Below, in pieces: positions 3,863 through 29,429 of a stretch of DNA of 32,000 bases. The notes under the pieces were generated by a model. The model was not told the DNA's origin and made no database searches. It was given only the letters and a program-made list of their open reading frames with translations. The stretch is taken from assembly GCF_000146505.1 (NCBI RefSeq), contig NC_017448.1, positions 3,480,001-3,512,000 on the forward strand, given 5' to 3'. How positions within the stretch are numbered: the first letter of the stretch is position 1; each line of letters starts with the position of its first letter. The position numbers and the translations under genes are program-made. The DNA is from Fibrobacter succinogenes subsp. succinogenes S85 (GTDB lineage: Bacteria; Fibrobacterota; Fibrobacteria; Fibrobacterales; Fibrobacteraceae).

Positions 3863-5197
3863 TCATAGCTCATTCCTCCTCGTAAGTATCGCGATTTTCT
3901 CGCCGTCGAGGCGTGTGTAGAATAGCGTTGCTGTGTTCTTGCCCTTGGGCTTGAGTCGCTTGATTTCTTGGTCGGGATCGACTTTGACGCCTCGCAGCTT
4001 GAGCGTGAGTTTTCCGATGTCGTGCGATTTGAGCATCGCGCGGACGGCGCCTGTCGAAATCTCGGACGATTCCAAAATCTCGTAGTTGGCGAAAGCGGGG
4101 GCGGGGAGCGGCTTTTCGCTTGTCACGTAAGCGATGCCCGGAGAAATCAGGTGCGTCGTTTCGTCGTGGGCGAGGGCGACCACTCCAAAGAGGTGGCTGC
4201 GGAGCAACACCGGCGCGGGTTCTGCGATGAACTTTGAAATCCCGCCGAGAGGCAAGTCGGATTCGCTGCTCGATGTGCGGTAAATGCGGTCGCGACCTTC
4301 GAGTTCGTAATTGTGGTCGTATTGCGATTGTTCGCTCTCGTTGCGGGCTTCGCGCTTCTCGTCGCGGGCGAACGTCCAGTTGGCAATTTCGTTCCCTGTT
4401 TTGTCGACCATTACAGCGCGGACATGGTCGGGATTCTTGGCGAGTTCGCCGAACAGCACCAAACATTCGCGGCAGTCCGTGCGCGAACCGATGTACAGGA
4501 TTTCTGTGCCACGCGGAATTTCGCAAATAGGGTAGCCGGGCGGAATTTTAGCCATGCCGCCTTTGTAATGCTTTGAAATCTCGATGACTTCTTCGAATGT
4601 AGGCGTAAGGTTGCGCAAGTCGCGCTGGTTCTCGCCTTCGATGGCTCGACGGGCAGGGTCAATCGTGAAATAATCGGCGTGTTGGGCGTCTGATGTTGCG
4701 TTGGAGTGCGCCGCGACTTCGCGGACATCGGCGAGGATGCTGTGTGCGTCGCTGGATTCTGGCGACGCACACAGCATCACGCTGCTGTTGTAGCGGTACA
4801 TCGCAAGGCGGTTTTCGTCAAGGTCCACACCGATGGCGGTCAGTTCCTTCGGCAAAAAGAAGGAATCCCCGCCCATGCCGCAGCAAAGGTCGTGAACGGT
4901 TTTGCCTACGGCTTCGGGTCCACTTGGCCACAAGTTTGCTTTCCAACGCCCGATATCTTGTGCGGTGCTCTGTTCCAACGCTAATTTGTCGCAAAGGAGG
5001 AATTCGGTGTTTTCGATTCCGAATTTTTCGCGAAATTTTGGCACGAGAGCCATATAGTCCATAATGGCGGCTCGTTCTTCGTTGCTGAATTCCTTGGCTA
5101 GCTGCGTCGAAACTTGCAATGCATCCAATTTTTTCTTGGTTGCAAGCTTGATGAAATCCTGAACTTTAGCCGAAGTGAGTAAATCCGCGTTGAACAT
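3863..5197 (-). CDS. Class I SAM-dependent methyltransferase with a THUMP-like C-terminal region
   Basis: SAM motif I-like 'VHDLCCGMGGDSFFL', with 'LEQSTAQDIGRWKANL' upstream as in the THUMP-like-domain methyltransferase family. The substrate is unknown. Confidence 0.6.
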   Translation of the reverse strand: MFNADLLTSAKVQDFIKLATKKKLDALQVSTQLAKEFSNEERAAIMDYMALVPKFREKFGIENTEFLLCDKLALEQSTAQDIGRWKANLWPSGPEAVGKTVHDLCCGMGGDSFFLPKELTAIGVDLDENRLAMYRYNSSVMLCASPESSDAHSILADVREVAAHSNATSDAQHADYFTIDPARRAIEGENQRDLRNLTPTFEEVIEISKHYKGGMAKIPPGYPICEIPRGTEILYIGSRTDCRECLVLFGELAKNPDHVRAVMVDKTGNEIANWTFARDEKREARNESEQSQYDHNYELEGRDRIYRTSSSESDLPLGGISKFIAEPAPVLLRSHLFGVVALAHDETTHLISPGIAYVTSEKPLPAPAFANYEILESSEISTGAVRAMLKSHDIGKLTLKLRGVKVDPDQEIKRLKPKGKNTATLFYTRLDGEKIAILTRRNEL

Positions 5198-5325: not shown

Positions 5326-6834
5326 ATGAAGTTTTTGAAAAATCTTGCGGCGTGCGTGTCTTGCGCTTCTGTTGCTTTGCTAATGCAATCTTGTGGTGAC
5401 GATACGGCTTTGTCGCCTGTTTATGCTTTAAGTTCTTCGTCTGCGCAGGAGTCGCTTGAATCATCATCGAGTGTGCAGGAGTCCTCGGCTCAGGAATCCT
5501 CGTCATCTGTTGAAAATTTATCGTCTTCTTGCCAAGATGGTGACTCCTCGTCTTCAGAAACATCTTTGTCGGCAGGGACTGAATCGTCTTCATCCGTGGC
5601 GACATCGTCTGAAATAGAACCGACGTCGTCTGAAACGTTGCAGAATTCTTCATCGTCCGAAGCTCAGTCATCGGTGGCTGAAGCATCGTCGTCTTCTAAT
5701 GCGTCGCAACCCTCCTCTGCAATAGAATCCTCGTCATCGCAAGCGCCCAGTTCATCTTCTGAAACTCCGAGTTCTTCTTCGGCCCAACCCATAAAAATAG
5801 ACTTCTACAACGGCGCCGACATCTCTGAAGTCCAGGAATACGAACGAAATAATACGAAGTTCTACGATGTCGATGGCAAAGAAAGCGATATCTTCACAAT
5901 CCTGAAAAATCACGGATTTAACTCCATTCGCTTGCGCACGTTTGTTTCGCCCAAGGCAAAGTACGGCTATGCGGCGAGCGGTTGCGGTCATGATTCCGAA
6001 GCGTATGGTGACAAAGACCACGTTGTTGCTTTTGCCAAGATAGTCAAAGCGGCGGGCATGGGGCTTCTCGTTGATATCCATTACAGCGATGTCTGGGCGG
6101 ATCCTGGCAAGCAGATTATCCCCGAACGCTGGCGTAACGTGAATAATGCCAATGCGATGGCGGATTCCGTGTACGCATACACCAAGGATTTGATGATTGC
6201 ACTTAAGAATGCCGGTGCAACGCCAGACATGGTGCAAGTTGGCAATGAAACGACTCCTGGCATCTTGATCCACAAGCCAAACAGCAAAACAGACTGTTGG
6301 GGAAATGGTGTCGATAAGGCTGCGACTTCTGTCAATGGCGATATGGGAACATCGGCGGGCAAGGCAAATGCCGCCAAGTATTTCAATGCAGGCATCAAGG
6401 CCGTCAAGGAAGTTTCGCCATCAACGAAAACAGTGCTCCACATCGAAAGTATCCGCAAAGAAGAAACAGTTAAATGGTGGATGGGCGTCATCTTTGATGA
6501 CTATAAAATCCCTGCTGACGTGATGGGCTTCTCCGCTTACACGGCATACGGCGACGGCACACCCGATAAGTGGAAGAATTTGTTCAATACGATTACGACA
6601 AAGTATTCAAAATTGGAATTTATCGTTGCGGAATACAACGGCGGCGATTCCGATAACCACTACAATTTTGATAAGTCCCGCCAAAAGACTCGTGAATCCG
6701 TCCGCGAAATGAACCGCTGGATCGGCTCGTTCTTCTGGGAACCGACAATCGGCGGTGCGTGGGGCTCGGGACTTTTTGACTGGCGTGGTAAAGATGTTTA
6801 CGCCAACGCCAAGGCTTTCGAAGAATTTTACTAA
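5326..6834 (+). CDS. Lipoprotein arabinogalactan endo-beta-1,4-galactanase (GH53) with a long Ser-rich linker
   Basis: Lipobox 'LLMQSC', ~130 aa of Ser-rich linker, then 'GADISEVQEYE...FNSIRLRTFV', 'VQVGNETTPG' (acid/base Glu) and 'FIVAEYN' (nucleophile Glu), all typical of GH53. Confidence 0.85.
   Translation: MKFLKNLAACVSCASVALLMQSCGDDTALSPVYALSSSSAQESLESSSSVQESSAQESSSSVENLSSSCQDGDSSSSETSLSAGTESSSSVATSSEIEPTSSETLQNSSSSEAQSSVAEASSSSNASQPSSAIESSSSQAPSSSSETPSSSSAQPIKIDFYNGADISEVQEYERNNTKFYDVDGKESDIFTILKNHGFNSIRLRTFVSPKAKYGYAASGCGHDSEAYGDKDHVVAFAKIVKAAGMGLLVDIHYSDVWADPGKQIIPERWRNVNNANAMADSVYAYTKDLMIALKNAGATPDMVQVGNETTPGILIHKPNSKTDCWGNGVDKAATSVNGDMGTSAGKANAAKYFNAGIKAVKEVSPSTKTVLHIESIRKEETVKWWMGVIFDDYKIPADVMGFSAYTAYGDGTPDKWKNLFNTITTKYSKLEFIVAEYNGGDSDNHYNFDKSRQKTRESVREMNRWIGSFFWEPTIGGAWGSGLFDWRGKDVYANAKAFEEFY
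6797..6834 (+). repeat. Direct repeat, left copy. This is the functional 3' end of the GH53 gene (VYANAKAFEEFY*)
   Basis: 33/38 nt identical to 9013-9050 by hand alignment. Confidence 0.9.
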
Positions 6835-6853
6835 AGCGAAGATTTACAAAACA

Positions 6854-6886
6854 AGCCTCTCCGAATTGGAGAGGCTGCATTTTTTA
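6854..6886 (+). terminator. Rho-independent terminator after the GH53 gene
   Basis: Stem agcctctcc / ggagaggct with loop gaatt, followed by gcatttttta. Confidence 0.75.
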
Positions 6887-7188
6887 TATCACAAATCAGA
6901 CTTTTCTCAATCAAGCAAACGCTCTTTCGTCAAGGTTTTTATTGAAGTTGAAAAACTACAAAATCGGCTATTGGCGTTTATTTTGCTTGGAATACAATAA
7001 GTCCTTCATTCGTTATCCGTACTATTTTCTATGATGTCTCTATCAAGTAGTTCAACAACTAGTTGGTATGTCATAACTTTTGCAATCTATGCAGATTGCA
7101 TTATCAATTACAAAGAATCTGTGTGAGTTTTTCTACAGTGCAGAATTTATCTATAACGATTCAAAATTAATTTATATATTCTGGCTGC

Positions 7189-8157
7189 CTATCCCTTTAT
7201 CTTTGGTGGTGTAATTAGTTCTTCTATCCATTTTATCGTTTTATTTGTTGCTTCTGTATCATGCTTAAACACATAGTAATATAGTGTACCTATTGCTAAC
7301 GCTGCGTCTCCGTGATTTAAGCTTCCTGCCATTTGGTGACCGATGATCGAACAAATTTTACCAAGAGCTTTGTCATCTAGTTCTGTGGTTGGAATTGATG
7401 AAACTTCATGAATTTTGGAATTCACTTCTGAACGGAACTTTTCGGTGGATTTATTCAATTCGTACAATATCGGAGTTAAAAGTCGGCGTGATGCTTTTCG
7501 GTTGTCATTTATGTAGTTATCACTAAATGATGGTCTACCGCGTTTTCGTGTTCCTTGCCATATTTCCGAAATGGTTTCACATAAATCATCTATAGTCAGC
7601 ATCCAGCATCCTCCTGTAGAGACCAAACGCTTCAAGTCTGTAATGCAAGCAGATATGGTTATATCATCATTCAGGATTATAGCGATAAATAAATCGCGTG
7701 TTCGTTCAGGGAGCGTTCCTAATTCTGGTTCGAGTAATGCCTGAACAGTGTCTTTATACTTGCTGCCAAATGATGTTTTGGATACCAAAGGGATTCCTGG
7801 ATTTTGTTTGTTTATTGTGAGGCGAATATTGTCTTTTTCCTTTGGGTTGAAATCGTTGCCATGATCCCAGCGCTTTAATAATTCTGTGCATATCAATTGT
7901 AGGGTTTCTATGGATAGTGTTTCTACTGGATCTGGTGTAATTTTTTGTATTTCTTTCAGCAATGCAGTTCTGTATGCTGATTTGTCTTTTTGTATTGCTT
8001 CAATGGCGTGTTCTATTAAAATTCTATCGCCAGAATGTTTCCAAAATACGAGTTTGCCAGTGCTAAAAATTAATGTTTTATACGCACTCCATGCTAGAAA
8101 ATATCCTATTGGTTTTATTACACACCAATCAAGAATAACCTTGAAATCTATATCCAT
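7189..8157 (-). CDS. Hypothetical protein (322 aa), hydrophobic N-terminus, no family recognised
   Basis: Long uninterrupted ORF in AT-rich DNA, where stops are frequent, 64 nt downstream of the 211-aa ORF on the same strand. Confidence 0.6.
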   Translation of the reverse strand: MDIDFKVILDWCVIKPIGYFLAWSAYKTLIFSTGKLVFWKHSGDRILIEHAIEAIQKDKSAYRTALLKEIQKITPDPVETLSIETLQLICTELLKRWDHGNDFNPKEKDNIRLTINKQNPGIPLVSKTSFGSKYKDTVQALLEPELGTLPERTRDLFIAIILNDDITISACITDLKRLVSTGGCWMLTIDDLCETISEIWQGTRKRGRPSFSDNYINDNRKASRRLLTPILYELNKSTEKFRSEVNSKIHEVSSIPTTELDDKALGKICSIIGHQMAGSLNHGDAALAIGTLYYYVFKHDTEATNKTIKWIEELITPPKIKG

Positions 8158-8221
8158 AGAATCAACACCTTTGTTGTAATTTTTTATGGAAATGTAACAA
8201 ACAATTAAAGGACTCTAACTC

Positions 8222-8857
8222 TTACATTTTATTATCTGCATCTTGAATAATATCCAATATACATTTGGTTACATTGTTGTTGGGTGGAAGTTTGCTGTTT
8301 CTGTATAAAAAATTGCATGTTTTTGTAGATTTCCCGCTTAATCTGTGCGGAAAATTGAGAACCGTATTATAAACTCGGTTGAAACACTTTGGCAAATGTT
8401 TATATCTCCATGGTCGCCCATTTATACCCCACATAATAACCTCAATCAGCAAGTTGTTCATCTCATAGGGTGTATACACTTCAATAGCTGGTTCCATTTG
8501 CTTGGATTTATAATCATTGAACCAAGACTTTGCTTCGTTAATGAAATCTGTATCATTTGGAAATGCATCCTTGCCTGTGGTGCCGTTCCATACAAGATGT
8601 AGTTCAAATAAGCACCATATATAATGTTCGCTAGTTAAAGTCGCCAAACTCAATGTGCTGCTTGATTGTCCGTTTGATATATGGAATCGTTCATTTAAAT
8701 TATACAGGGCCATTCTACATGCTTTCAATCGTTTTCGCTCTAATCTGGCTTCTTTACCAAAATACGCAAATATTTTAGTAAATGTGGCATATACAATTGA
8801 TGCGAGAAAACCACCAACGATACCGGTTACCCACGGGTCATTCCAATAATCAGTCAT
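8222..8857 (-). CDS. Hypothetical membrane-anchored protein (211 aa), no family recognised
   Basis: ATG preceded by ACGGAGTAAAAC (SD-like). One clear N-terminal TM helix (VTGIVGGFLASIVYATFTKIFAYF) followed by a Trp/Asn-rich soluble part. Confidence 0.6.
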   Translation of the reverse strand: MTDYWNDPWVTGIVGGFLASIVYATFTKIFAYFGKEARLERKRLKACRMALYNLNERFHISNGQSSSTLSLATLTSEHYIWCLFELHLVWNGTTGKDAFPNDTDFINEAKSWFNDYKSKQMEPAIEVYTPYEMNNLLIEVIMWGINGRPWRYKHLPKCFNRVYNTVLNFPHRLSGKSTKTCNFLYRNSKLPPNNNVTKCILDIIQDADNKM

Positions 8858-9012
8858 GTTTTACTCCGTCATTGCTTTGGGTTGTGTTAAATCAATATAA
8901 TCATAATCAAAAAATAGACAAAAAGATTGAGTTGCTTAATGAGATGAGGAGTGTCTTACATACATTAGATATTGATAATGTAGATTGGCTAAATTAAACT
9001 ATTGTAACGACC

Positions 9013-9050
9013 TTTACGCAAACGCCAAAGCCTTCGAAGAATTTTTCTAG
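9013..9050 (+). pseudogene. Displaced remnant of a GH53 gene 3' end (LYANAKAFEEFF*); right copy of the direct repeat
   Basis: In-frame translation gives ...DLYANAKAFEEFF-stop against ...DVYANAKAFEEFY-stop in the live gene. No ORF lies upstream of it. It ends 3 nt from the convergent kinase stop. Confidence 0.8.
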
Positions 9051-9053
9051 GAA

Positions 9054-9959
9054 CTAAACTTTCGCCGCCATTATGTCGGCAACATTTTCCAAAGAGATTC
9101 CCTTGAGGTTTTTTCGAAGCATGACATTTAAAATGAGATACTTTATGGGGCCTGGTGCAGGGATCATGTGGTATTTTATAGTCACAGCCATGGCTAAGTG
9201 AAGCCGAATCTTTTTCCCGAACATTTCGTCTGGTTGAATTGATCTGCCAAAATATGCGGCTGTAAATTCCACCCAGTAAGCGCGCAACTGTTGTTCTGTC
9301 ATGTGAAATATTTGTTGCACGCTCTTTTTGGTACAAAGAATGTTGGTAAACATGTACAGAAGGGCTATATCAAAAAGGTAATGCCCATAGCCGAAATCGC
9401 CCATGTCTATCCAGTAATTTTCACCGGTCTTGTTTGAATGTACGATATTGCCAGGCTGGAAATCGTACTGTAGGCAACCATGACTGTCAGGAACTAGCTC
9501 TATAGCGGCCTTCAAGATATCTTTGTACTTCTTGAATGTGAATAGCTTTGGAATGGCCTTGCGTATGGTTTCTTTATAGCACAAGAATTGGGTTGGGTCG
9601 CAGTTTATGCCATGAAATTTTTTCGCTTCTTCGGCGTGGATTTTTGCGATGCGGGGCAGGTCACTTGGATTGTCGTGAATCATCCTTGTGAACGAAATTT
9701 TTTCTTGCACTTTCTCATAGATTATGCCAAGGCGTCCCGATTGACTTTCTTCAACCAGTTCGATTGCTGCAGGAGTTTTAAAGCCGACGGAAGCAATCTT
9801 TCTAGAGTTTTCAAACTCTGCGATAATGTCTTCCTTGCGCCCCTCAGGTTTCATGAGCTTGAGCATAATGCTCGAATCTGTTTTTGAAAAGTAGCTTTCT
9901 CCGAAAGCCCCTTCCCCTTGCAATTCCCAGTCATTTAAATTAATCTGTTTGTAATTCAT
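9054..9959 (-). CDS. Aminoglycoside/choline-kinase-like phosphotransferase (APH family fold)
   Basis: Gly-rich loop 'GEGAFGESY', catalytic-loop-like 'LQYDFQPGNIV' and 'WIDMGDFGYG' (DxG metal-binding). The ATG at 9959 is preferred over the TTG at 9977. Confidence 0.7.
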   Translation of the reverse strand: MNYKQINLNDWELQGEGAFGESYFSKTDSSIMLKLMKPEGRKEDIIAEFENSRKIASVGFKTPAAIELVEESQSGRLGIIYEKVQEKISFTRMIHDNPSDLPRIAKIHAEEAKKFHGINCDPTQFLCYKETIRKAIPKLFTFKKYKDILKAAIELVPDSHGCLQYDFQPGNIVHSNKTGENYWIDMGDFGYGHYLFDIALLYMFTNILCTKKSVQQIFHMTEQQLRAYWVEFTAAYFGRSIQPDEMFGKKIRLHLAMAVTIKYHMIPAPGPIKYLILNVMLRKNLKGISLENVADIMAAKV

Positions 9960-9985
9960 AATTACGAATATAAACAAAAAATTGG

Positions 9986-11242
9986 CTATGGTTCCACTCT
10001 AAATTCAAATCGGTTCTTCCAGCAACTTTCGCGTTCACCATTTTGTACGCTTTTTCCGAGGGCATCCACGCGCTTTGTTTGCGCATTCTGCATTTGCGAA
10101 GCGTCATGCCGAGAGTTTGCCGCGCGTTTTTTGTGAATGTCGCGGATTCCTGTAGTTCCTTCGCGCAAAGCAACAGCGATGCTATCTAGAATCGGATTTC
10201 CGACGCCTTCGATGTAGTCGTGCGAAACTTCCCAGACCATGATGCCTGCGTAACCGTTTTCTTTGACCCAACGCGATTTGACGGCGGAAGAATGCGGGTC
10301 TTCGAAGGTCACGTATCCGGTTGAAGATACGCCGTAGGGCTCTACAGCGACGCTGTCATAGAAGTATTTCCAGTCGGTGTTTGTGACGATATCTTTGTAT
10401 GCGATTTGCTTGGCGGTACCTTTGGTAAAGTCGGAGCCCGGTCCTGTTGCTCCTTGAAATTGAAACCCGAATGACGGAATTCCGAAGACCATCTTTTCTG
10501 TCGGGACGCCGCGCTTTTTCCAATAGTCGCGTGTTTCTTCCCACGACCATGTGGTGTATCCATCGTGCGGGTATAGCGGCGAATCGAACATGGCTTTGTC
10601 ATCCCAGTCGCCGGTGATATCGTAAGTCATAAAGCCGAGCCAGTCCAAGTTTTTCACGAGGACTTCGGCTGTGAACCATTTCCCGTAATAGGGCGAGCAG
10701 GGGAGCGCTGCGGAAAGACTTTTGTCTTTTGGGAGGGCTTCGCGAAGTTCTGTGAGCAATTTACTGTAGGCGATAGTGTCTGCTTCGGGGACGGGATTGT
10801 ATTCCCATTCCCAGTCCATGTCAAGCCCGTCAAGATTGTGGTCTGCGACGTATTTGACGAGGTTTGCTACGAATTTTTGACGGAGTGCATCGTTTGACGC
10901 AACGGGCACGAAGTTGTCGCTTTGTCCGCCACCGCCGAGCGAGACGATGACTTTTGTGCCGGCTGCATGGGCGAGCGTTACCATTTCGTCGAGTGCGCTT
11001 GGATCCTCTGCGGCGTCTCCGCGCAATGAACCATCCGTGTTTGGCGTGATGAAACTCCACAGCACGTGCGTTAATTTGTTGTACGGAACTTTGTCTACAG
11101 TGTAGGCTGGCTTGTGCCATTTGCCCCAATCCGGGTAATATCCGATAAACAAAGGTGCTGCCCACGCGGAGCAAATTCCGCCGAGTGTGAAAAGAGAACT
11201 AGCGACGAATGTTGCAAAAATATGTGAAATTCTATTCTTCAT
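9986..11242 (-). CDS. Secreted GH18 glycoside hydrolase (chitinase-like) with a basic C-terminal tail
   Basis: Signal peptide, then 'FIGYYPDWGKW' and the GH18 catalytic motif 'LDGLDMDWEWE' (DxxDxDxE). The last ~65 aa are Arg/Lys-rich. AGGAG lies upstream of the ATG. Confidence 0.85.
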   Translation of the reverse strand: MKNRISHIFATFVASSLFTLGGICSAWAAPLFIGYYPDWGKWHKPAYTVDKVPYNKLTHVLWSFITPNTDGSLRGDAAEDPSALDEMVTLAHAAGTKVIVSLGGGGQSDNFVPVASNDALRQKFVANLVKYVADHNLDGLDMDWEWEYNPVPEADTIAYSKLLTELREALPKDKSLSAALPCSPYYGKWFTAEVLVKNLDWLGFMTYDITGDWDDKAMFDSPLYPHDGYTTWSWEETRDYWKKRGVPTEKMVFGIPSFGFQFQGATGPGSDFTKGTAKQIAYKDIVTNTDWKYFYDSVAVEPYGVSSTGYVTFEDPHSSAVKSRWVKENGYAGIMVWEVSHDYIEGVGNPILDSIAVALREGTTGIRDIHKKRAANSRHDASQMQNAQTKRVDALGKSVQNGERESCWKNRFEFRVEP

Positions 11243-11266: not shown

Positions 11267-13789
11267 CTAGCCTCTCTTCAATTCGACCACATAATCCGCG
11301 GCGTCGACGAAGTCTTGTGCATGTTCAATAGCAATGACGGTGTGGCCGGCATTGCAAAGTCCGTGAATGAGCCCGAGCAACTGCTGGATATCCTTTTGAT
11401 GGAGACCGCGGGCGGGTTCGTCAAAGAGGAACAATGTGTTCGGGGCTTTGGCTCGCGCGAGTGTAATGGAGAGGCGGAGTCGAGCGCGTTCGCCACCGGA
11501 GAGGTGTGCTGTCGTTTGACCGAGACGCAAATAGTCAAGGCCTGTATCTACGAGCGGTTTGAGCTTTTCGGCGAACGGCTTCATGTTCGTGAATAGCTTG
11601 TATGCACTGCCGATTTCCATGTCCAAAATGTCGGCGATGGAAAGCGACTTGAATCGGATTTCCAAAACTTCATCACGGAAGCGCTTGCCGAGGCACACGG
11701 GGCATTCGGATTCTTCGTAGCCGAGCGGATCGTAAATGACGCCTTCTCCTTTGCAGTTCTCGCAACGGCCACCGGGGGCGTGCATGCTGAATTTGGAGGC
11801 GGTGTAGCCGCGCACTTTGCTTTCGGGGAGCTTCGCAAACAAGTCTCGCAATAGCGTGGTGAGGCCGATGGCACTCAAGACTGTGCTGCGCTTACTCCCG
11901 TGAAAATCTCCGGTCGTGAGAATCGAAAGAGCGTCGATGCCGAGCTTTTTGAATTCTTCGGCTTTGGCACGTTTGGCGATGTTTTCGAAAAGGAGTGTCG
12001 ATTTTCCGCTGCCGCTTTGGCCTGTAATCACGCTGAATTTGTTGATGGGGAAGGCGGCGTTCACCGGCGCCATGTCGAACTTCGCGAAGTTCTTGACGAG
12101 GATTGCTTGGCTTTTCTCCTCGCAATGGCATTCTACATTCCTTCCTACTTCCGACTTCCTACTTCCTACTGCTTTTATCCACATTCCCGTGGGCGATTCA
12201 GGATTCTCAAGTACTTCGTCACGAGTGCCTTGGAATAAAATTTCGCCACCTTTTTCGCCTGCGCCCGGCCCCATTTCAATAATGTAGTCTGCTCGCTTAA
12301 TGATTTGCGGATTGTGCTCAATGAGCACGAGCGTGTTGCCACGCTTGCGGATTTTTTCGAGGACTTTCCAAAGTGCAGAGACGTCACTAGCATGGAGACC
12401 GCTAGCGGGTTCGTCAAGGGCTATCAAAAGACCGTTCAAATGCCCTGTACTGAGGCTGGCGAGTTTAAGTCTTTGCAATTCGCCGCCCGAAAGCGTTTGT
12501 CCTGCGCGTCCTGGCGTGAGGTAACCAATGCCCAAATCGTTGATGGCTTCAATACGGTCGAGGAGCGAATTGAATGTCGCCTTTAAATTTTGCCCGATTT
12601 TGTTATCGAAAATTTTGTGCAAAAGCTCCGGCAATTCCGCAAATTCCGTCGTGAGAATTTGCTTGTAACTGACGTCATCTACGGTGGCGTTCAAGTATGT
12701 TTTCTTGAGGCGGAGCCCGTGACAGTGCGGGCATTCTGCGTTTTCGTCCTCGTCACTTTCTACATTGGATTCGGCGCGACCTTTGCCGCCTCCTTTCTCG
12801 TTGATTTTTGCTGGGGCAGCTTCTTGAATGATTCCCGTGCCGTAGCAATATTCGCAGACACTGGTGCGGCTGTATGGCGAGAACGCGCGTGCGTCCAGGC
12901 TGGCGACGGTTTCGTTTGACTTTTGCGATTGATGCTGCTCATCGCTTGCATTTGGGCAGCACGGCTTTGTGCTGTAGAACTTGCGTTCGCCCGCGATGTC
13001 AAGCGTGATTGCGGAATGCGTAAGCTTTAATGTGCCATCAACGGCTTCTGCGATTCGTGTGCGTGTGTTTTCACGAACGATGATTCTATCAACGATGATG
13101 AAAAATTCTTTGGGCGTCAAAACCTTTTCGCCAGGGAGCAAGTCTGCAAGCGAATACATGGTGCCATCGGCAATCGCACGTGTAAAACCCTGCGCCAAAA
13201 ATACGGCCGACAGTTTATCCAACGTCGTGCGACTCTTACTCTGCGCTTTCTTTTTGTCATTCCTGTCTGCATTGATGTCGCCCCGCACTTGTTGCGGGGT
13301 CGCCATTTCCGCATTTCCCGTTTCAATTTTCGCCAAGAACTGTAGCTTTGTCCCGATGGGCATTCCTGCGGTTTCGCGGATGATCTCTTCGCGGCTCTGG
13401 CTCACCATCGGGGCTCCGCAAATGGGGCAGGCGGGCTTTGCAAACGCAGCGAACAATGTGCGTAATGCGTTGTCACATTCGGCAATCGAAAGTGCAGATG
13501 CTTTCGCGGGAGCTTCTCCGCGCGTGGCGGCAATCGCTAAACTTGCGGGGAGTCCTTCGGCGCTGTCGAGCGGAATGCTTCGCTTGCCTCCGAGCAAATC
13601 TGCCGCAAAAGGCGAGAGCGTCTCGAGGTAGCGGCGTTTGCTTTCGCCGTGGAGCGTGTCCATCACGAGTGTCGATTTTCCGCAACCCGACGGTCCGCAT
13701 ACAACCGTAATTTTCCCCAGCGGAAACTGGGCGTCGACATTTTTTAAATTATGGAGTCTGCAACCGCGAATCGAAATGTAATCAAGCAT
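11267..13789 (-). CDS. uvrA: Excinuclease ABC subunit A-like protein (divergent, 840 aa)
   Basis: Two ABC modules with Walker A 'GPSGCGKSTL' and 'GQSGSGKSTL', signatures 'LSGGELQRL' and 'LSGGERARL', and Cys-cluster zinc modules (CPICG, CEYCYGTG, CPHCHG, CENCKGEG...CPVC). About 100 aa shorter than canonical UvrA. Confidence 0.85.
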   Translation of the reverse strand: MLDYISIRGCRLHNLKNVDAQFPLGKITVVCGPSGCGKSTLVMDTLHGESKRRYLETLSPFAADLLGGKRSIPLDSAEGLPASLAIAATRGEAPAKASALSIAECDNALRTLFAAFAKPACPICGAPMVSQSREEIIRETAGMPIGTKLQFLAKIETGNAEMATPQQVRGDINADRNDKKKAQSKSRTTLDKLSAVFLAQGFTRAIADGTMYSLADLLPGEKVLTPKEFFIIVDRIIVRENTRTRIAEAVDGTLKLTHSAITLDIAGERKFYSTKPCCPNASDEQHQSQKSNETVASLDARAFSPYSRTSVCEYCYGTGIIQEAAPAKINEKGGGKGRAESNVESDEDENAECPHCHGLRLKKTYLNATVDDVSYKQILTTEFAELPELLHKIFDNKIGQNLKATFNSLLDRIEAINDLGIGYLTPGRAGQTLSGGELQRLKLASLSTGHLNGLLIALDEPASGLHASDVSALWKVLEKIRKRGNTLVLIEHNPQIIKRADYIIEMGPGAGEKGGEILFQGTRDEVLENPESPTGMWIKAVGSRKSEVGRNVECHCEEKSQAILVKNFAKFDMAPVNAAFPINKFSVITGQSGSGKSTLLFENIAKRAKAEEFKKLGIDALSILTTGDFHGSKRSTVLSAIGLTTLLRDLFAKLPESKVRGYTASKFSMHAPGGRCENCKGEGVIYDPLGYEESECPVCLGKRFRDEVLEIRFKSLSIADILDMEIGSAYKLFTNMKPFAEKLKPLVDTGLDYLRLGQTTAHLSGGERARLRLSITLARAKAPNTLFLFDEPARGLHQKDIQQLLGLIHGLCNAGHTVIAIEHAQDFVDAADYVVELKRG

Positions 13790-14555: not shown

Positions 14556-14966
14556 TCAGTGATTGCTAATATCGCCGAAGCTGGCTTCTATGAAGAAAAT
14601 GTGAAATACTTGTTGTTCCTGTAATCCTACTAAAACGCGATTATCCCCGCTTGAACGGAGAATGTGCAAATCTTTTACGTCAGGTGTTAGACATTCGGCT
14701 TTTGCGGTATGTTTAATCTGACCAACAGGCATTTTTTCCATGCCCCATTGATGTCGCCCTGAAGCGCGGATTCCTTGCCAACCTATTGTCGAATATTTTT
14801 TGAAACGTCCAAGTAAATCGGTAAAAAATTTTGAGTTGCTGCACTTATTGTATGATTCTTCAACCAAATATTTGAATGAAAAAAGAACGTCGTTGCTGGA
14901 TACTGCTGTTCTAGAAACACTTGCGACGCCTTGTATTGGCGGAATAATTTTGAATTTATGTGTCAT
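14556..14966 (-). CDS. Candidate toxin partner (PanT-like position) of the Panacea antitoxin; family not recognised
   Basis: 136-aa ORF starting at an ATG 5 nt after the PanA-like stop, on the same strand. The longer track ORF (start 15053) would overlap the antitoxin by 82 nt. The function is inferred only from its position. Confidence 0.45.
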   Translation of the reverse strand: MTHKFKIIPPIQGVASVSRTAVSSNDVLFSFKYLVEESYNKCSNSKFFTDLLGRFKKYSTIGWQGIRASGRHQWGMEKMPVGQIKHTAKAECLTPDVKDLHILRSSGDNRVLVGLQEQQVFHIFFIEASFGDISNH

Positions 14967-14971
14967 TTCTT

Positions 14972-15409
14972 TTAGGCGAGTCTTGTTAAGAAGAATTTCT
15001 TCATTGATTCTTGGCTGATAATGTTGCCTTTGCCTGGAGATACTGAATTCCATGGCGGCTCGCTATGTGTCATTTCTACTAGTTTTACGGCTGAATACTG
15101 GTTGTATACATCAAAGACGTTGTTGAACAAAGTTGTTTCTTCTTCGTTTAGTTTGATGTCTATTTGGGTAGGAGGTTCAATTCCCTTTGCATCATATTTT
15201 GCATATTTTTCATAGACTTCAGGAACTACAGGACCGAACATCCATGCTTCGATATTTTCGTCAAATAAAGGAGTGTCAAATGCGGCCAAATGGAAACCCT
15301 GCTCGTAGTAAAGCATTTTTTGCAGCTTGAGATTGGACATCAATTCTTGATTTCTTTCTGCAGCTTTTGATAAAAGCAATTGAGCTATTTGTAACGCCTT
15401 GTATGCCAT
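14972..15409 (-). CDS. Panacea/DUF4065 domain protein (SocA/PanA-type antitoxin)
   Basis: 'NLKLQKMLYYEQGFHLAAFDTPLFDENIEAWMFGPVVPEVYEKY' closely matches the DUF4065 core (LKLQKLLYY.QGW.L...PLF.E.IEAW.YGPV.P.VY). Confidence 0.85.
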   Translation of the reverse strand: MAYKALQIAQLLLSKAAERNQELMSNLKLQKMLYYEQGFHLAAFDTPLFDENIEAWMFGPVVPEVYEKYAKYDAKGIEPPTQIDIKLNEEETTLFNNVFDVYNQYSAVKLVEMTHSEPPWNSVSPGKGNIISQESMKKFFLTRLA

Positions 15410-21293: not shown

Positions 21294-22255
21294 AGTCCGT
21301 CCGTGTTTCCTTCCCATCTCCAGTTCTTTGCGCTGACCGCGGGCCAGTGGCAAATCGTCCACACGAGACTGTTGCCGCACAAAATGATGGACCAGACGCC
21401 AAAGAGCAGGAAGAGGAATAGTGGAATAAAAGCTAGTGATCCGTAGAAAATGGACATGCGCGTGACCATTGCCGTCTGGATGAGCATCAGAATCTTCACG
21501 TAGATGTTGATGGCAAGCCAAGAAAGCAAAGTCGAGAGCATCGACGCTAAGAACAGCTTACGGCGGGTGTAGGGCTTGTGGCCTGCCGGGCGCGCTGGGA
21601 GCGCATAAAGCATAATGAAAATCACGAGGAGAGCCGCGATGTGGAATGCCGAGTACCAGAATACGGTGATGAGCGCCTTGATGACTTCCGGCGAAAAGTG
21701 GAATCCGTCAACAATGATGACTTTGAGCACGTTCTGCACATGGTTCACGAAACCTGCGAACATGCCGACTACGGCAGCCCCGATGAGGAGGAATGGTGTG
21801 TAAATCTTAATCTGGCGAATCAAAGTTCTGGAAGTCTTGTTTTCCCAGACCACGTTGAAATTCGTTTCGAGGCTTCCGAATGCGAGGATAAACGTGACAA
21901 AAAGACCGCCTGCACCGATAAATCCGAGCTTTTTGATGGGGATGTGCTCGGCATTTTCGACGATGTCCATGATTTGCTCGGTCGGCCAGTCCAGATTGAG
22001 CATGTCAATCACGATGGGGAGGTAGTCCGAAATGAAGTTACCGAACCCGACGGCGAGCGTGATGGAAGTGAGCATGATGAGGAGTGGGACGACTGCCACG
22101 AGCGTCGTGTAGGTCAAAGATGCGGCACGGGTCATTCCGTGATAGTACAGGAATGATTTTCCGGTGACAACCATGATTTTGACGAACGTCGGAGAACGGG
22201 CTGCGATATGATCGAACAGCCATTCCCACGAAAAATTTTTCCACCAATGCGGCAT
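21290..22255 (-). CDS. YihY/BrkB (virulence factor BrkB / 'ribonuclease BN-like') family inner-membrane protein
   Basis: 'GMTRAASLTYTTLVAVVPLLIML' matches the YihY N-terminal signature. Multiple TM helices, ~320 aa. Confidence 0.8.
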   Translation of the reverse strand: MPHWWKNFSWEWLFDHIAARSPTFVKIMVVTGKSFLYYHGMTRAASLTYTTLVAVVPLLIMLTSITLAVGFGNFISDYLPIVIDMLNLDWPTEQIMDIVENAEHIPIKKLGFIGAGGLFVTFILAFGSLETNFNVVWENKTSRTLIRQIKIYTPFLLIGAAVVGMFAGFVNHVQNVLKVIIVDGFHFSPEVIKALITVFWYSAFHIAALLVIFIMLYALPARPAGHKPYTRRKLFLASMLSTLLSWLAINIYVKILMLIQTAMVTRMSIFYGSLAFIPLFLFLLFGVWSIILCGNSLVWTICHWPAVSAKNWRWEGNTDGL

Positions 22256-22398
22256 ACTCGTGTTAAATATAGTTAAAGGAACGACTTACGAGAACTTTTG
22301 GCGCGTTTCGTTTCGTTTTTTTACGAAAAACTGTACTTTTTGTGGTCGAAATTTCCTAAAAACAGGTTTACTAATGTAGACAAATAATAAATTCCTTT

Positions 22399-22484
22399 TG
22401 TGGACTTTTTCTAGCAAATTATTGTTTGAAAGTTAAAAGTATAATAAAAAATGTGGACTTTTTATTGAAAAGAGATTATATTTG
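22399..22484 (+). promoter_or_regulatory. Candidate promoter/operator of the PL11-CE12 genes: two exact TGTGGACTTTTT boxes plus a TATATTTG box
   Basis: TGTGGACTTTTT occurs at 22399-22410 and 22452-22463, 53 bp apart. Variants TGTGGTC (22341) and TGTAGAC (22375) lie upstream. TATATTTG at 22477-22484 lies 18 nt after the proximal box. Confidence 0.45.
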
Positions 22485-22527
22485 AAAGAAACAAGAGTTT
22501 GGTTTTACACCGTTAGGAGCGTTGTAT

Positions 22528-25161
22528 ATGGGATATAATCATAATTTTAAGGCTATTTTGGCAAGTTCGCTGTTGGCTGCGGGCTTGGCTGTTCCGTCTT
22601 TTGCTGCGCCGCGTCAAATGGAAAACTTGACACGCGGCCTTGTGGCGTCAAATGTGGGCAAGGGAATGCTTGTCAGTTGGCGCTTGTTGGGAACCGACGA
22701 CCCGGCGACGGAATTTGTCCTCTATCGTGATGGCAAGAAACTTGCCTCGATTGGCAAGTCTGCCGGCACGAGCTACCTTGATGCTGCTGGCACAGCTACC
22801 TCCAAGTACACGGTGGCTGCCGTTGTCGATGGCAAGGAGCAATCTCAGGTTGGTTTGTCGCTCGTTTTAGATAAAACGGTCTCCAATAGCGGAAAATCTT
22901 TCCCATATAAGACTTTTAAAGTGGAGCCGCCTGCAGCACAGACTATGCCGAACGGTGAAACGTGCACTTACGTTCCGAACGATATGAGCACGGCTGACCT
23001 CGATGGTGACGGCGAATATGAATTGGTTCTCAAATGGGATCCGTCTAACGCTCACGATAACTCGCAAACGGGTTATACGGGTACCGTGTTTATTGATGCC
23101 TACAAGCTGAATGGCAAGCGCCTTTGGCGCATTGACCTCGGCAAGAATATCCGCGCAGGTGCGCACTACACGCAGTTCCAGGTATTTGACTACGACGGCG
23201 ATGGCAAAGCCGAAATGATTGTGAAGACTGCCGACGGAACGATTGATGGTACGGGCAAGGCTGTGGGCGACAAGTCCAAGGATTATCGTGACGGTAGCGG
23301 CCTTGTGCTTAAGGGGCCGGAATACTTGACCGTTTTCCGCGGTGCTGATGGCGCTGCGGTTTCGACGGTTGATTTTGTGCCGAGTCGAGACATCAACCAG
23401 CATGTGAAGGGCAAGGATGGCAAGGGCTACTGGGGCGACAACTACGGTAACCGTTGCGAACGCTACCTGGCTGCGACTGGCTACTTGGATGGCGTCCATC
23501 CGAGTGCAATTTTTGCACGTGGTTATTACACGTCTGCTTATGTGGTTGCGTATGATTTTGATGGCAAAACATTGAAGCAACGCTGGTACCACAAGTCTGA
23601 AGACCCGGGCAAGGGTCTCTATGGCGAAGGAAACCACAGTCTTCAGGCGGCTGACCTCGATGGCGATGGTTATGATGAAGTGTTTTTCGGTGCTGCAGCC
23701 TTGAATCACGATGGCACCCTGCGTTACCGCACTGGCCTTGGTCATGGCGATGCCCACCATATTGCCGATATGGATCCGGACCGTCCGGGGCTTGAATCCT
23801 GGGATGTGCATGAACACAAGGATGCCAAATATACCGATGAACTTCGTGCAAACGATGGCACGATTATCTGGGGAACGCCTCAGCCGAATCCTGGCGTAGA
23901 CAACGGCCGTGGCATGGCTGCTGACGTAGATTCTACCCATCGCGGTTACGAAATGTGGTCTGCGAAGGGCGGTGGAATGTTTACTGTAAAGCACGAAAGA
24001 ATCGGTTCTCCGGCTGTTTCGCAGAATTTCCGCATTTATTTTGACGGTGACCTGCAGGATGAACTCTTGGATGGCGCCTACGTGACCAAGTTCAATTCTA
24101 AGGATATCAAGGCAGAAGTTTACTTTGATGGCCCGACGGCGCTTGGTGTAACGGGTTGCAATGGCACCAAGAATACGCCGAGCCTCGTGGCAGATCTCTT
24201 CGGCGACTGGCGCGAAGAACTGGTGGTGCGTAGCGAAAAGGACCCGACCACGATGTACATTGTCTCGACTCCGGTGACATCTCCGTATCGTCTTTACACG
24301 CTGATGCACGACGCCACCTACCGCACGGCAGTCGCTTCCGAAAATACAGCTTACAACCAACCACCGCATCCGGGATACTTCTTGCCCGATATGGCGAAAT
24401 CTCTCAAGCAGCCGGATATTTACGTGGTCGGTGAAAATGTCGTAGTGCCGGTCGATACGACTCCGGTTGTGAACGACGGTTTGTCTATGCTCGATGCTTC
24501 TACGCCGAAGGATGGTGTGGGGTGGACCGAAAAAACAAACGAAGGGTTCCTCAAGAACGGTTACTTCAATTTTGATAACACACTTTCTAGCTATGGTGTT
24601 TGGGAAATCTTCTCGAAGACCGAGGCTAAGACGACTTTGACAATCCGTTACGCCAATGGTGGAAATGCTGATCGTAGCATGGCTGTTAGCGTGAATGGCA
24701 AGTCGGCAGGTACGGTTAGTTTCCCGGCTACAGGATGGACAACGTATAAAGAGGCCTCTGTAGATGTGAAGCTGAAGGCTGGCGTCAATACGCTCAAGCT
24801 GACGTCGATGACAAGTGACGGTGGCCCGAATGTTGATATGTTCACGTTCGGAATTGACGGCGTAGAACTTTACGATGGAACGCAGGTTGTTGACAAGCCG
24901 GTATCGATTGCGCCTCAGTCGTTCAGGCCGAATGTTTATAATCCGGTAACGGGAATCCTCCATACAAATGAAGCAGGCCTTGCTGAAATCTATGCCTTTG
25001 ATGTGACAGGTAAGCTCGTTGGCGGAATCTCCCGCAATGTGACTGCCGGAACGTCTAAGGTGATGTTTGACCGCGAAATGCTCCCGCGTGGTGCTTACAT
25101 GATGGTTGTGAAATTGAACGGTCGCGTGATTTCGAAGAGCTTGCGTAAGGCCGCAAAATAA
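22528..25161 (+). CDS. Rhamnogalacturonan lyase (PL11, YesW-like beta-propeller) with a CBM35/6-like module and a T9SS-type C-terminal domain
   Basis: 'ADLDGDGEYELVLKWDPSNAHDNSQTGYTG...IDAYKLNGKRLWRIDLGKNIRAGAHYTQFQVFDYDGDGKAEM' is YesW/YesX-like. CBM region: 'GWTEKTNEGF..GYFNFDN...RYANGG...SDGGPNVDMFTF'. Tail: 'IYAFDVTGKLV...GAYMMVVKLNGRVISK'. AGGAG lies 8 nt before the ATG at 22528 (the track start at 22522 is TTG). Confidence 0.85.
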   Translation: MGYNHNFKAILASSLLAAGLAVPSFAAPRQMENLTRGLVASNVGKGMLVSWRLLGTDDPATEFVLYRDGKKLASIGKSAGTSYLDAAGTATSKYTVAAVVDGKEQSQVGLSLVLDKTVSNSGKSFPYKTFKVEPPAAQTMPNGETCTYVPNDMSTADLDGDGEYELVLKWDPSNAHDNSQTGYTGTVFIDAYKLNGKRLWRIDLGKNIRAGAHYTQFQVFDYDGDGKAEMIVKTADGTIDGTGKAVGDKSKDYRDGSGLVLKGPEYLTVFRGADGAAVSTVDFVPSRDINQHVKGKDGKGYWGDNYGNRCERYLAATGYLDGVHPSAIFARGYYTSAYVVAYDFDGKTLKQRWYHKSEDPGKGLYGEGNHSLQAADLDGDGYDEVFFGAAALNHDGTLRYRTGLGHGDAHHIADMDPDRPGLESWDVHEHKDAKYTDELRANDGTIIWGTPQPNPGVDNGRGMAADVDSTHRGYEMWSAKGGGMFTVKHERIGSPAVSQNFRIYFDGDLQDELLDGAYVTKFNSKDIKAEVYFDGPTALGVTGCNGTKNTPSLVADLFGDWREELVVRSEKDPTTMYIVSTPVTSPYRLYTLMHDATYRTAVASENTAYNQPPHPGYFLPDMAKSLKQPDIYVVGENVVVPVDTTPVVNDGLSMLDASTPKDGVGWTEKTNEGFLKNGYFNFDNTLSSYGVWEIFSKTEAKTTLTIRYANGGNADRSMAVSVNGKSAGTVSFPATGWTTYKEASVDVKLKAGVNTLKLTSMTSDGGPNVDMFTFGIDGVELYDGTQVVDKPVSIAPQSFRPNVYNPVTGILHTNEAGLAEIYAFDVTGKLVGGISRNVTAGTSKVMFDREMLPRGAYMMVVKLNGRVISKSLRKAAK

Positions 25162-28966: not shown

Positions 28967-28994
28967 AAACGAAAATTCCATTTTTCGTTGGATA

Positions 28995-29034
28995 TTACGT
29001 GAATATCTTCAAAATAAGCTTGATATTCACGTAA
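28995..29034. repeat. Perfect 13-bp inverted repeat TTACGTGAATATC / GATATTCACGTAA (14-nt spacer)
   Basis: Read directly. The left arm sits inside a near-palindrome, GATATTACGTGAATATC (28991-29007). Confidence 0.85.
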
Positions 29035-29056
29035 AATTTTGATGTTGTATGTAGTT

Positions 29057-29086
29057 AAAATCCGCTTGAATGCGGATTTTTGCTTT
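29057..29086 (+). terminator. Rho-independent terminator downstream of the second CE12 gene
   Basis: aaaatccgc-ttgaat-gcggatttt followed by tgcttt. Confidence 0.6.
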
Positions 29087-29180
29087 AAAATGAAAAATTT
29101 TGAGCTTTTAAAGCTTAAAACACTGTCTAAAAGGTGGCGAAAGATACTTTTTGCTGAATTTTTAATAAGTTTGTCTGAAT

Positions 29181-29224
29181 TTTTACGTGAGAAAATCTGA
29201 TAATTCGATATTTTTCACGTAAAA
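29181..29224. repeat. Second inverted repeat with the same core: TTTTACGTGAGAAAAT / ATTTTTCACGTAAAA
   Basis: 15 of 16 positions are complementary, with a 12-nt spacer. It shares the TTACGTGA/TCACGTAA core with 28995-29034. Confidence 0.8.
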
Positions 29225-29277
29225 AATGAACTTTTTTAGATTTTTCAAAAAAAATAACACATTTTTTATAACATAAT

Positions 29278-29321
29278 GTGGACATAAAATTTGCAAAACT
29301 GTGGACAATAATGTATATTAC
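29278..29321 (+). promoter_or_regulatory. Two TGTGGACA boxes (22 bp apart) followed by a TATATTA box, upstream of the TIGR02147-PL1 genes
   Basis: aaTGTGGACAtaaaatttgcaaaacTGTGGACAataatgTATATTAc. Same heptamer as upstream of the PL11 gene. Confidence 0.4.
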
Positions 29322-29429
29322 TATTAGTAACTCTTTCTAATAAAAGGAGATGTCCGATTAAATCGGGCATGACAATCACAAGTTCAGACCTCAAAGGGGC
29401 GAACCCCCGACCTCATAGTTTATAGCCTA

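Follow-up and report, generated by a model that had tools for sequence, protein, structure and literature searches.

We analysed a 32,000-nucleotide (nt) stretch of contig NC_017448.1 of Fibrobacter succinogenes subsp. succinogenes S85 (positions 3,480,001 to 3,512,000; hereafter the window, whose first letter is position 1), in which a short AT-rich cassette carrying two genes lies between the intact end of a galactanase-type GH53 gene and a second copy of that same gene end. An initial annotation, made from the letters alone, had read this arrangement as the footprint of an element that integrates into the 3′ end of a gene and carries a replacement end with it. The genes and features at the locus are as follows.

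3863-5197, minus strand: THUMP-like gene
5326-6834, plus strand: intact GH53 (galactanase-type) gene, a 502-aa open reading frame (ORF)
6788-6833, plus strand: left repeat copy of the EEFY-TAA allele type, forming the functional end of GH53 (last 15 codons)
6854-6876, both strands: bidirectional intrinsic terminator hairpin, AGCCTCTCC-GAATT-GGAGAGGCT
6911-6955, minus strand: stub of a CobW/COG0523 GTPase gene, 14 codons plus stop, FFNFNKNLDERAFA then stop, ending in NLDERAFA and the stop
~6970-9003, genes on the minus strand: foreign cassette, 2.03 kb, GC content 0.35
7189-8157, minus strand: ORF322 (FSU_3027), a near-orphan
8222-8857, minus strand: ORF211 (FSU_3028), a near-orphan
9004-9050, plus strand: right repeat copy, apparently the orphaned former GH53 3′ end, ...NDLYANAKAFEEFF-TAG, as in the kinase-abutting type of allele
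9054-9959, minus strand: APH-like kinase gene, convergent with GH53
9986-11242, minus strand: GH18 gene
11267-13789, minus strand: UvrA-like ATPase gene

A duplicated GH53 end around compositionally foreign DNA

The product of the GH53 gene matches Pfam Glyco_hydro_53 (E 2.1e-63) and has orthologues with 76-97% identity in 15 Fibrobacter metagenome-assembled genomes (MAGs); the gene ends in ...VYANAKAFEEFY-TAA. The kinase matches Pfam APH (1.1e-06) and NCBIfam TIGR02172 (1.3e-103), a Fibrobacter paralogous family. A repeat search paired 6788-6833 with 9004-9049, the two copies being identical at 39 of 46 nt (85%), so the identity of 33/38 and the five differences previously described for the shorter frame (6797-6834 against 9013-9050) hold and the match extends to 46 nt. 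When the left 46-mer was compared with the window without gaps, the next-best match reached 26/46, and 200 shuffles of the window gave at most 29/46; as the observed 39/46 lies far above this maximum, the repeat is not due to chance. Both copies encode (V/L)YANAKAFEEF(Y/F) of the GH53 enzyme, their longest identical run being 13 nt (TTCGAAGAATTTT), and both borders of the insert are thus built of the 3′ end of the target gene. The right copy is preceded by an in-frame stop at 8976-8978, nine codons before the homology begins, and no GH53 similarity was detected 5′ of position 9004 (tblastn best E = 8; blastn gave just chance matches of 10-19 nt). Its own TAG, at 9048-9050, lies 3 nt from the kinase stop at 9054-9056, in agreement with the earlier description of a copy that has no ORF upstream and ends against the kinase gene.

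The DNA between the copies consists of a 219-nt non-coding stretch, two minus-strand genes and a 146-nt upstream region. Over 6970-9003 its GC content is 0.351, compared with a value of 0.48 in the window overall, and GC content at third codon positions is 0.30 and 0.34 in its two ORFs and 0.56-0.66 in the flanking core genes. The tetranucleotide distance of the cassette is 0.489, compared to 0.27 +/- 0.056 over all 2-kb windows, and no other 2-kb window is equally deviant. The cassette DNA is compositionally foreign, and formal calculation bears out the earlier impression of an AT-rich interval. Likewise, the statement that no integrase, transposase or tRNA is present was borne out by our scans of the window: its proteins gave no match to a recombinase family in Pfam, PADLOC, PHROGs or NCBIfam, a tRNA search found none, and annotation of the flanks over ~7 kb on the left and ~9 kb on the right contained no recombinase.

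The cargo itself is poorly represented in the databases. Neither ORF matched a Pfam, PADLOC or NCBIfam family, all PHROGs matches were non-significant, no toxin or immunity family match was found for the cargo genes, and an Rfam scan gave no match. The ORF322 sequence occurs without a single difference on CP001792.1, the S85 chromosome (at ~3.03-3.05 Mb), and on many contigs built from S85 sequencing runs. ORF322 has a hydrophobic N-terminus, and its AlphaFold2 (AF2) model is all alpha, with a predicted local distance difference test score (pLDDT) of 77.7 and a predicted template-modelling score (pTM) of 0.77; a Foldseek search of this model against the PDB returned nothing at E <= 0.001, and just seven relatives were found at E <= 1e-3 among 1.84 billion representatives. 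ORF211 also has a hydrophobic N-terminus, and its AF2 model is poor (pLDDT 55.5) and so unfit for structure search. Among 5.8 billion clusters, each cassette protein has only 2-3 homologue clusters (three for ORF211).

Relatives of the two proteins were also seen in other settings. One ORF211 relative (71% identical; contig L027, 1297-3368) lies between a 213-aa ORF and a BrnT/BrnA pair, near an Smr gene; this contig has no ORF322 relative and shares with S85 just the ORF211 reading frame, at 77% nt identity. A relative of ORF322 (P0007, 43% identical) occurs on metagenome contigs of 42-105 kb (L042 and L043, 10001-12020; L044, 1688-3707), where its gene is convergent with an IS1595-type DDE transposase gene with a 26-nt overlap and has glycosyltransferase-like genes and a weak terminase match as neighbours. 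A 215-aa gene upstream of this relative on L042 was considered as an ORF211 homologue and is unconvincing (E 0.017).

At both ends of the S85 cassette we observed the motif TTGGCG-N16-TACAAT in inverted orientation (6971-6998 on the plus strand and 9001-9028 on the minus strand). The motif, which also reads TTGGCGTTT-N13-TACAAT, has two matches in the window against 0.18 expected; the right one straddles the junction between cassette and orphan copy and has a promoter-like score, reading into ORF211. As candidate terminal inverted repeats or dif-like sites these motifs were rejected: the right one is not conserved in three of the metagenome carriers described below (L030-32), it is partly GH53 coding sequence, and it holds an internal 6-nt repeat, so that the pairing is probably fortuitous.

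The same interval in related genomes and metagenome contigs

We collected related loci by a scan for the GH53 catalytic domain, taking one genome per species, which yielded 15 Fibrobacter loci, each with as much as 10 kb of flanking DNA in either direction (labelled with L numbers below). None of these 15 genomes has a match to the cassette, and none has two GH53 genes at the locus. In MAG RUG13674 (L011), GH53 ends in EEFF-TAG and is followed by 3 nt (gaa) and then by the kinase stop; the junction reads ...TTTTTCTAG gaa cta..., with the GH53 end ...CTTTACGCTAATGCCAAAGCCTTCGAAGAATTTTTCTAG. Window positions 9004-9980 are colinear with L011 at 95.6% identity, and the alignment begins exactly at the first base of the repeat. 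A related genome thus holds the unoccupied site that corresponds to one repeat copy, as had been anticipated from the proposal that GH53 and the kinase gene ancestrally lay tail-to-tail. Sequence comparison therefore supports the reading of the right copy as a displaced, formerly functional GH53 end that came from such a tail-to-tail allele; the orphan now appears functionless.

The usual order in the relatives is GH53, the hairpin terminator, a 385-aa CobW/COG0523 GTPase gene on the opposite strand, a 138-aa Fur-family gene and GH18. The content between GH53 and GH18 varies as follows.

CobW and Fur genes: L012-16, L019, L020
Kinase gene, 155-aa CobW fragment and Fur gene: L011
Nothing, GH53 and GH18 lying ~20 nt apart: L017, L018, L022
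An additional 303-aa ORF after the GH53 stop, ahead of the terminator: L015
Unrelated DNA: L013, L021, L023-25

The THUMP-like and GH53 genes on one side and the GH18 and UvrA-like genes on the other are retained in 10 of the 15 relatives, with at least five different contents between them; the remaining five have just the THUMP-like and GH53 genes, plus the UvrA-like gene in two. Conserved flanking genes therefore enclose variable content, the pattern of an insertion hotspot. The 303-aa ORF of L015 (5653-6727, minus strand), which has a signal-peptide-like N-terminus, stands ahead of the same hairpin, and given that this insert has no duplicated gene end, it represents a second, independent insertion at the hotspot. 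The kinase gene occurs in only one of the 15 related genomes, L011, between the GH53 stop and the 155-aa C-terminal CobW fragment (11039-12417 in L011 for this arrangement), and is, judged by this distribution, itself an accessory gene of the hotspot. S85 has no CobW/COG0523 GTPase and Fur-family pair between GH53 and GH18 (window 9960-9985, compared with 7813-9486 in L016 and 315-1988 in the carrier contig L035); by family, the two genes look like a zinc-homeostasis pair. Between S85 and L011, identical tracts (6472-6621 and ~9300-9800) alternate with tracts diverged by ~10%, and since the whole GH53 region is mosaic in this way, no single left crossover can be placed.

Close relatives of the cassette proteins led to eight metagenome contigs other than S85 that carry the cassette at 97-99% identity. 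The search for the segment elsewhere, as had been suggested, was otherwise negative: in addition to its absence from the 15 relatives, no copy was found in plasmids, phages, viral contigs or the metagenomes of the Joint Genome Institute (JGI; searched by protein and by a stub-specific 25-mer). The GH53 genes of the carrier contigs differ from that of S85 at ~6.7% of sites, mainly third codon positions. The right junction, ...TTAAACTATTG followed directly by TAACGAC (junction sequence TTAAACTATTGTAACGAC), is identical in S85 and in 8/8 contigs, and the left edge is the same as in S85 in all seven contigs that reach it, L030-32 and L036-38 among them. What follows 3′ of the right copy differs.

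Kinase gene: S85, L038 (L039 has the same copy type, and the contig ends inside the copy)
Terminator, then CobW: L030-32
Terminator, intact CobW, Fur, GH18: L035
EEFF-TAA end, extra hairpin, terminator, L014-like CobW: L036, L037

The cassette thus lies in three or four right-hand backgrounds, all with identical junctions. In carriers of the CobW type, the cassette has on either side a segment of ~165 nt comprising the GH53 end, the terminator and the CobW end, and because this segment is doubled both convergent genes are intact. Chimeric metagenome assembly was considered as a source of the alternative right flanks and is unlikely, as the CobW-type join is present in seven contigs from separate assemblies (European Nucleotide Archive and Logan) in three variants; across this junction, the sequence common to the CobW-type join and an S85-type strain amounts to at most 16 nt.

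We then counted variable sites over the nine sequences (S85 and the eight contigs). There are ~45 in the 2030 nt of the cassette, ~36 in the 156 nt to its left (6786-6941) and 8-9 in the 46 nt of the right copy. Diversity is ~1% in the cassette, against 18-23% variable sites in the flanks. The variation in the right copy consists only of synonymous third positions or of the V/L, F/Y and TAA/TAG alternatives that also occur in functional alleles (a deletion scar in L035 aside). Such polymorphism indicates that the right copies were derived from working alleles and did not decay in place, in line with the earlier proposal that the two copies diverged under coding constraint. In L036, the left flank resembles L016 as far as 6892 and S85 from there on (the switch falling at 6892/6897), which is how recombination tracts that stop at heterology appear in mosaic flanks. 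Site 8950, 54 nt inside the cassette, follows the kinase-type right flank and sites farther inside do not, and linkage confined to a near-edge site is expected when linkage decays by recombination. Separately, some copies carry deletions: L030 has lost 41 nt near the start of ORF211 (window-equivalent 8784-8824; 163-aa product), L038 has lost 32 nt in ORF322 (7343-7374; 286-aa product), and the orphan copy of L035 has a 14-nt deletion that removes its stop (9042-9052). The deletions in cassette copies suggest that selection on the cargo may not be uniformly strong.

These comparisons also bear on the DNA to the left of the cassette. The hairpin at 6854-6876 folds with -19.6 kcal/mol (z = -5.3) and is terminator-like on both strands, and its sequence AGCCTCTCCGAATTGGAGAGGC is identical in L016, L015 and the second copies of L030-32 and L035-37, with variation in the last stem base and the flanks. 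The adjacent CobW stub, closed upstream by a stop at 6956-6958, aligns with the final codons of the 385-aa gene where this is intact (L016, L019, L012 and others, ending in LEKCLDERAFA and the stop), for which the full-length gene in L035 gives cobW and CobW_C Pfam matches; the stub-specific sequence is GAAGTTGAAAAACTAYAAAATCGGC, and no further CobW or Fur remnants were found in the window. Positions 6835-6955 therefore hold a terminator and a CobW 3′ end as in the cassette-free L016 and L015, and the left-copy allele type of GH53 is tied to the same terminator in L016. By these alignments the terminator is evidently native to the convergent GH53/CobW pair and not foreign, so that the foreign unit spans ~6970-9003 and not 6835-9012, the extent first given to the insert. 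The central proposal of the initial annotation, a mobile element that carries a replacement end and terminator, is not supported by this comparison: the EEFY-TAA end, the hairpin and the 14 codons are ordinary sequence in cassette-free relatives, and in the other carriers the block left of the cassette differs by ~10-20% while the cassette differs by ~1%, which is unexpected if the end had travelled within one element. The suggested footprint of an integrating element is thus supported in part: the displaced end, the foreign DNA and the empty site stand, and the element-borne end lacks support.

How the cassette may have come to lie in the GH53 tail

We consider it probable that the cassette entered this recombination hotspot a single time and later spread, its flanks being replaced by homologous recombination, and that S85 is one of the recombinants. 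On the evidence of the alignments, the data appear to fit recombination between hotspot alleles better than self-integration. On this reading the GH53-GH18 interval is a hotspot of recombination within the F. succinogenes clade, with the CobW and Fur genes as its common content, and a 2.03-kb AT-rich two-gene cassette of outside origin would have entered it once, with one fixed junction preceding the GH53 stop by 46 nt and the other preceding the CobW stop by ~14 codons. The founding insertion would have put a 165-nt segment on both sides of the cassette, sparing both resident genes. The simplest founding route would be a donor chromosome in which the body of CobW had already been replaced by the cassette; two joins, one homologous within GH53 and the other illegitimate at -46 (homology-facilitated illegitimate recombination), would yield the duplicated segment automatically. 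Alternatively, single-crossover integration of a circle bearing the 165-nt segment would give the same product. After entry, the cassette would have spread among lineages, exchanging its flanks with cassette-free alleles up to the edge of heterology. The left part of S85, with the EEFY-TAA end of GH53, the native terminator, the CobW stub and the cassette, would then have been joined inside the 46-nt copy, presumably by a short-homology crossover, to a right part from a kinase-abutting GH53 allele (EEFF-TAG), and likewise in L038 and L039. The right copy would be an orphaned native gene end without function, and an element-encoded recombinase would be unnecessary.

Several observations weigh against this account. 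Diversity falls sharply at both cassette edges, and L030-32 differ from S85 at five sites in the region of the CobW stub (6897/98, 6935/40/41), for which plain flank replacement fails; the distal stub has no counterpart in cassette-free donors. The five sites are clustered and possibly reflect just two or three events. The right copy shows no variation over its initial 8 nt (GTAACGAC), as would also be expected from a site-specific crossover immediately to their right. For the join in S85, the crossover would have to fall within a homology no longer than 46 nt, a length at which RecA-type recombination is inefficient. The founding donor, which would carry the cassette with its original right neighbour, was absent from all collections searched. 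Lastly, an L011-type site could also stem from deletion between the copies, which would reverse the polarity of the events.

Some of these points would be expected if the cassette were a non-autonomous integrative unit that entered several allelic backgrounds independently by means of a recombinase encoded elsewhere or on a helper element, an explanation we regard as unlikely. Its attachment site would span the convergent terminator and carry spare 3′ ends for both GH53 and CobW. The same junctions in three or four right-hand backgrounds, the sharp steps in diversity at both cassette edges, the constant first 8 nt of the right copy and the ~165-nt duplication that spares both resident genes in L030-32 and L035 all speak for it, as does the overall resemblance to e14 between icd and icdC (PMC13626634), and the 13-nt identical run TTCGAAGAATTTT could act as a core. 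However, neither the cassette nor the annotated flanks (~7-9 kb on either side) contain an integrase, transposase or other recombinase, and the confident model of ORF322 has no match among solved structures. The supposed arm of the element (6786-6941) varies between carriers, and the same type is a normal allele in the cassette-free L016. The cassette was found at no other locus and on no plasmid, phage or viral contig, and the relatives of its genes occur apart from each other in unrelated contexts (beside BrnT/BrnA and beside the IS1595-type transposase). The one-step version of such an event, a Campbell model with a 165-nt attachment site in two backgrounds, was rejected, as neither arm is common to S85 and L030-32 in the way that a single crossover point requires. 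We think it more doubtful still that the cassette is a tiny integrase-less mobile unit inserted repeatedly in trans with no harm to the two convergent genes, its near-orphan membrane-anchored proteins being a selected payload, for example a new defence or exclusion pair.

Quite improbable in our judgement is the reverse polarity, under which the occupied state is the older one in the kinase-type lineage and the site that appears empty in L011 is a deletion between the 46-nt direct repeats. Direct repeats on either side of 2.2 kb are typical targets of deletion, which would here leave a GH53 hybrid end next to the kinase gene, exactly the arrangement of L011, and a comparable chimera is known from excision of e14 (PMC13626634). 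L011 nevertheless retains, to the right of the kinase gene, a 155-aa CobW fragment and the Fur gene, both of which S85 has lost, and so looks less derived; the junction of TAG, 3 nt and stop, together with the coding-type polymorphism, also implies a working GH53 end beside the kinase gene. The competing explanation that the initial annotation had itself named, in which a second GH53 gene decayed until just the right copy was left and no insertion was involved, is hardly credible. It draws on just the existence of a gene fragment without an upstream ORF at 9004-9050, and we reject it as effectively refuted: upstream of 9004 there is zero GH53 similarity at the protein or DNA level, no relative has two GH53 genes, the homology starts abruptly at one junction common to all carriers, and the fragment and its right flank are colinear with the single-copy GH53 end of L011.

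Comparison with known systems and meaning of the locus

The closest precedent in appearance is e14, which is inserted in the 3′ end of icd in Escherichia coli, where it is flanked by icd and an orphan icdC fragment, and where deletion between the copies produced a chimeric yet functional gene (PMC13626634). As with e14 and phage 21, the insert in S85 lies within the 3′ end of a protein-coding gene, and a substitute 3′ end at one border keeps that gene intact. In contrast to e14, which has its own integrase and excises on SOS induction, the S85 cassette has no recombinase, holds only two ORFs and is only ~2 kb long; its 'substitute' end and terminator, moreover, are an ordinary allele in sister lineages and not element-specific DNA, and they are not as conserved as the cassette (~36/156 against ~45/2030 variable sites). 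The S85 locus is therefore not classed as e14-type: it has the repeat and the empty site but lacks an integrase and an element-borne end.

C-terminal displacement in Rhs, contact-dependent inhibition (CDI) and type VI secretion system (T6SS) loci has been proposed to proceed via homology-facilitated illegitimate recombination without an integrase (PMC5361080). As in these systems, in which an incoming block recombines in shared upstream coding sequence, the resident 3′ end is displaced downstream as an orphan and the arrays later move between strains by homologous recombination (PMC5361080), the old 3′ end in S85 lies orphaned downstream of an incoming block that shares upstream coding sequence. 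There, however, the new and old tips are different toxins with immunity genes and the orphans have selective value, whereas both ends in S85 encode the same 12-15 GH53 residues, the cargo consists of two unrelated genes, and no toxin tip or immunity gene is present. The S85 locus works like C-terminal displacement, yet it is not a member of that class.

Chromosomal integration hotspots between conserved core genes are a general feature of bacterial pangenomes. The locus shares with them its conserved flanks (the THUMP-like and GH53 genes to the left, the GH18 and UvrA-like genes to the right), variable content, a low-GC insert and mosaic flanks, and in the features tested it agrees with an accessory cassette at a recombination hotspot flanked by core genes. 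It differs in that inserts at hotspots are usually without a duplicated gene end, whereas here one remains as a 46-nt orphan, or as a 165-nt duplication where the background is of the CobW type; given that the founding duplication was left at the locus, its history is readable. Integrase-less modules can also be moved by host recombinases, as are integrative mobile elements exploiting Xer recombination (IMEX) at dif and the pdif modules of Acinetobacter plasmids. The cassette resembles these in its small cargo, sharp and constant ends, lack of a recombinase of its own and presence in several backgrounds; unlike them it has no detectable dif-like 28-bp sites, and the sole inverted end motif is not conserved in L030-32 and is half GH53 coding sequence.

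Elsewhere in the window, two ORFs of 145 and 165 aa overlap (14556-15409, minus strand) within a patch of 35-39% GC; the shorter one has a SocA_Panacea domain, and the two look like a Panacea-type toxin-antitoxin pair. Other short low-GC patches lie at 22200-22600 and 28800-29600 (GC 0.34 and 0.28-0.37) in surroundings of ~50% GC.

Taken together, the locus is a real and well-documented insertion scar, an ordinary kind of genome change and an unusually well-resolved example of a known event; it would represent a new class of mechanism only if mobilisation in trans were shown. Its scar mimics that of an integrase-borne element, which calls for caution when genomic islands are sought by the combination of a duplicated gene end and low GC content. 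A foreign gene pair that has no recombinase of its own has come to lie in the tail of a functioning gene and left it undamaged, and both the unoccupied site and the intermediates are documented. For F. succinogenes, a major cellulolytic species of the rumen, the comparison identifies a recombination hotspot between GH53 and GH18 and draws attention to FSU_3027 and FSU_3028 as a rare, recently spreading gene pair.

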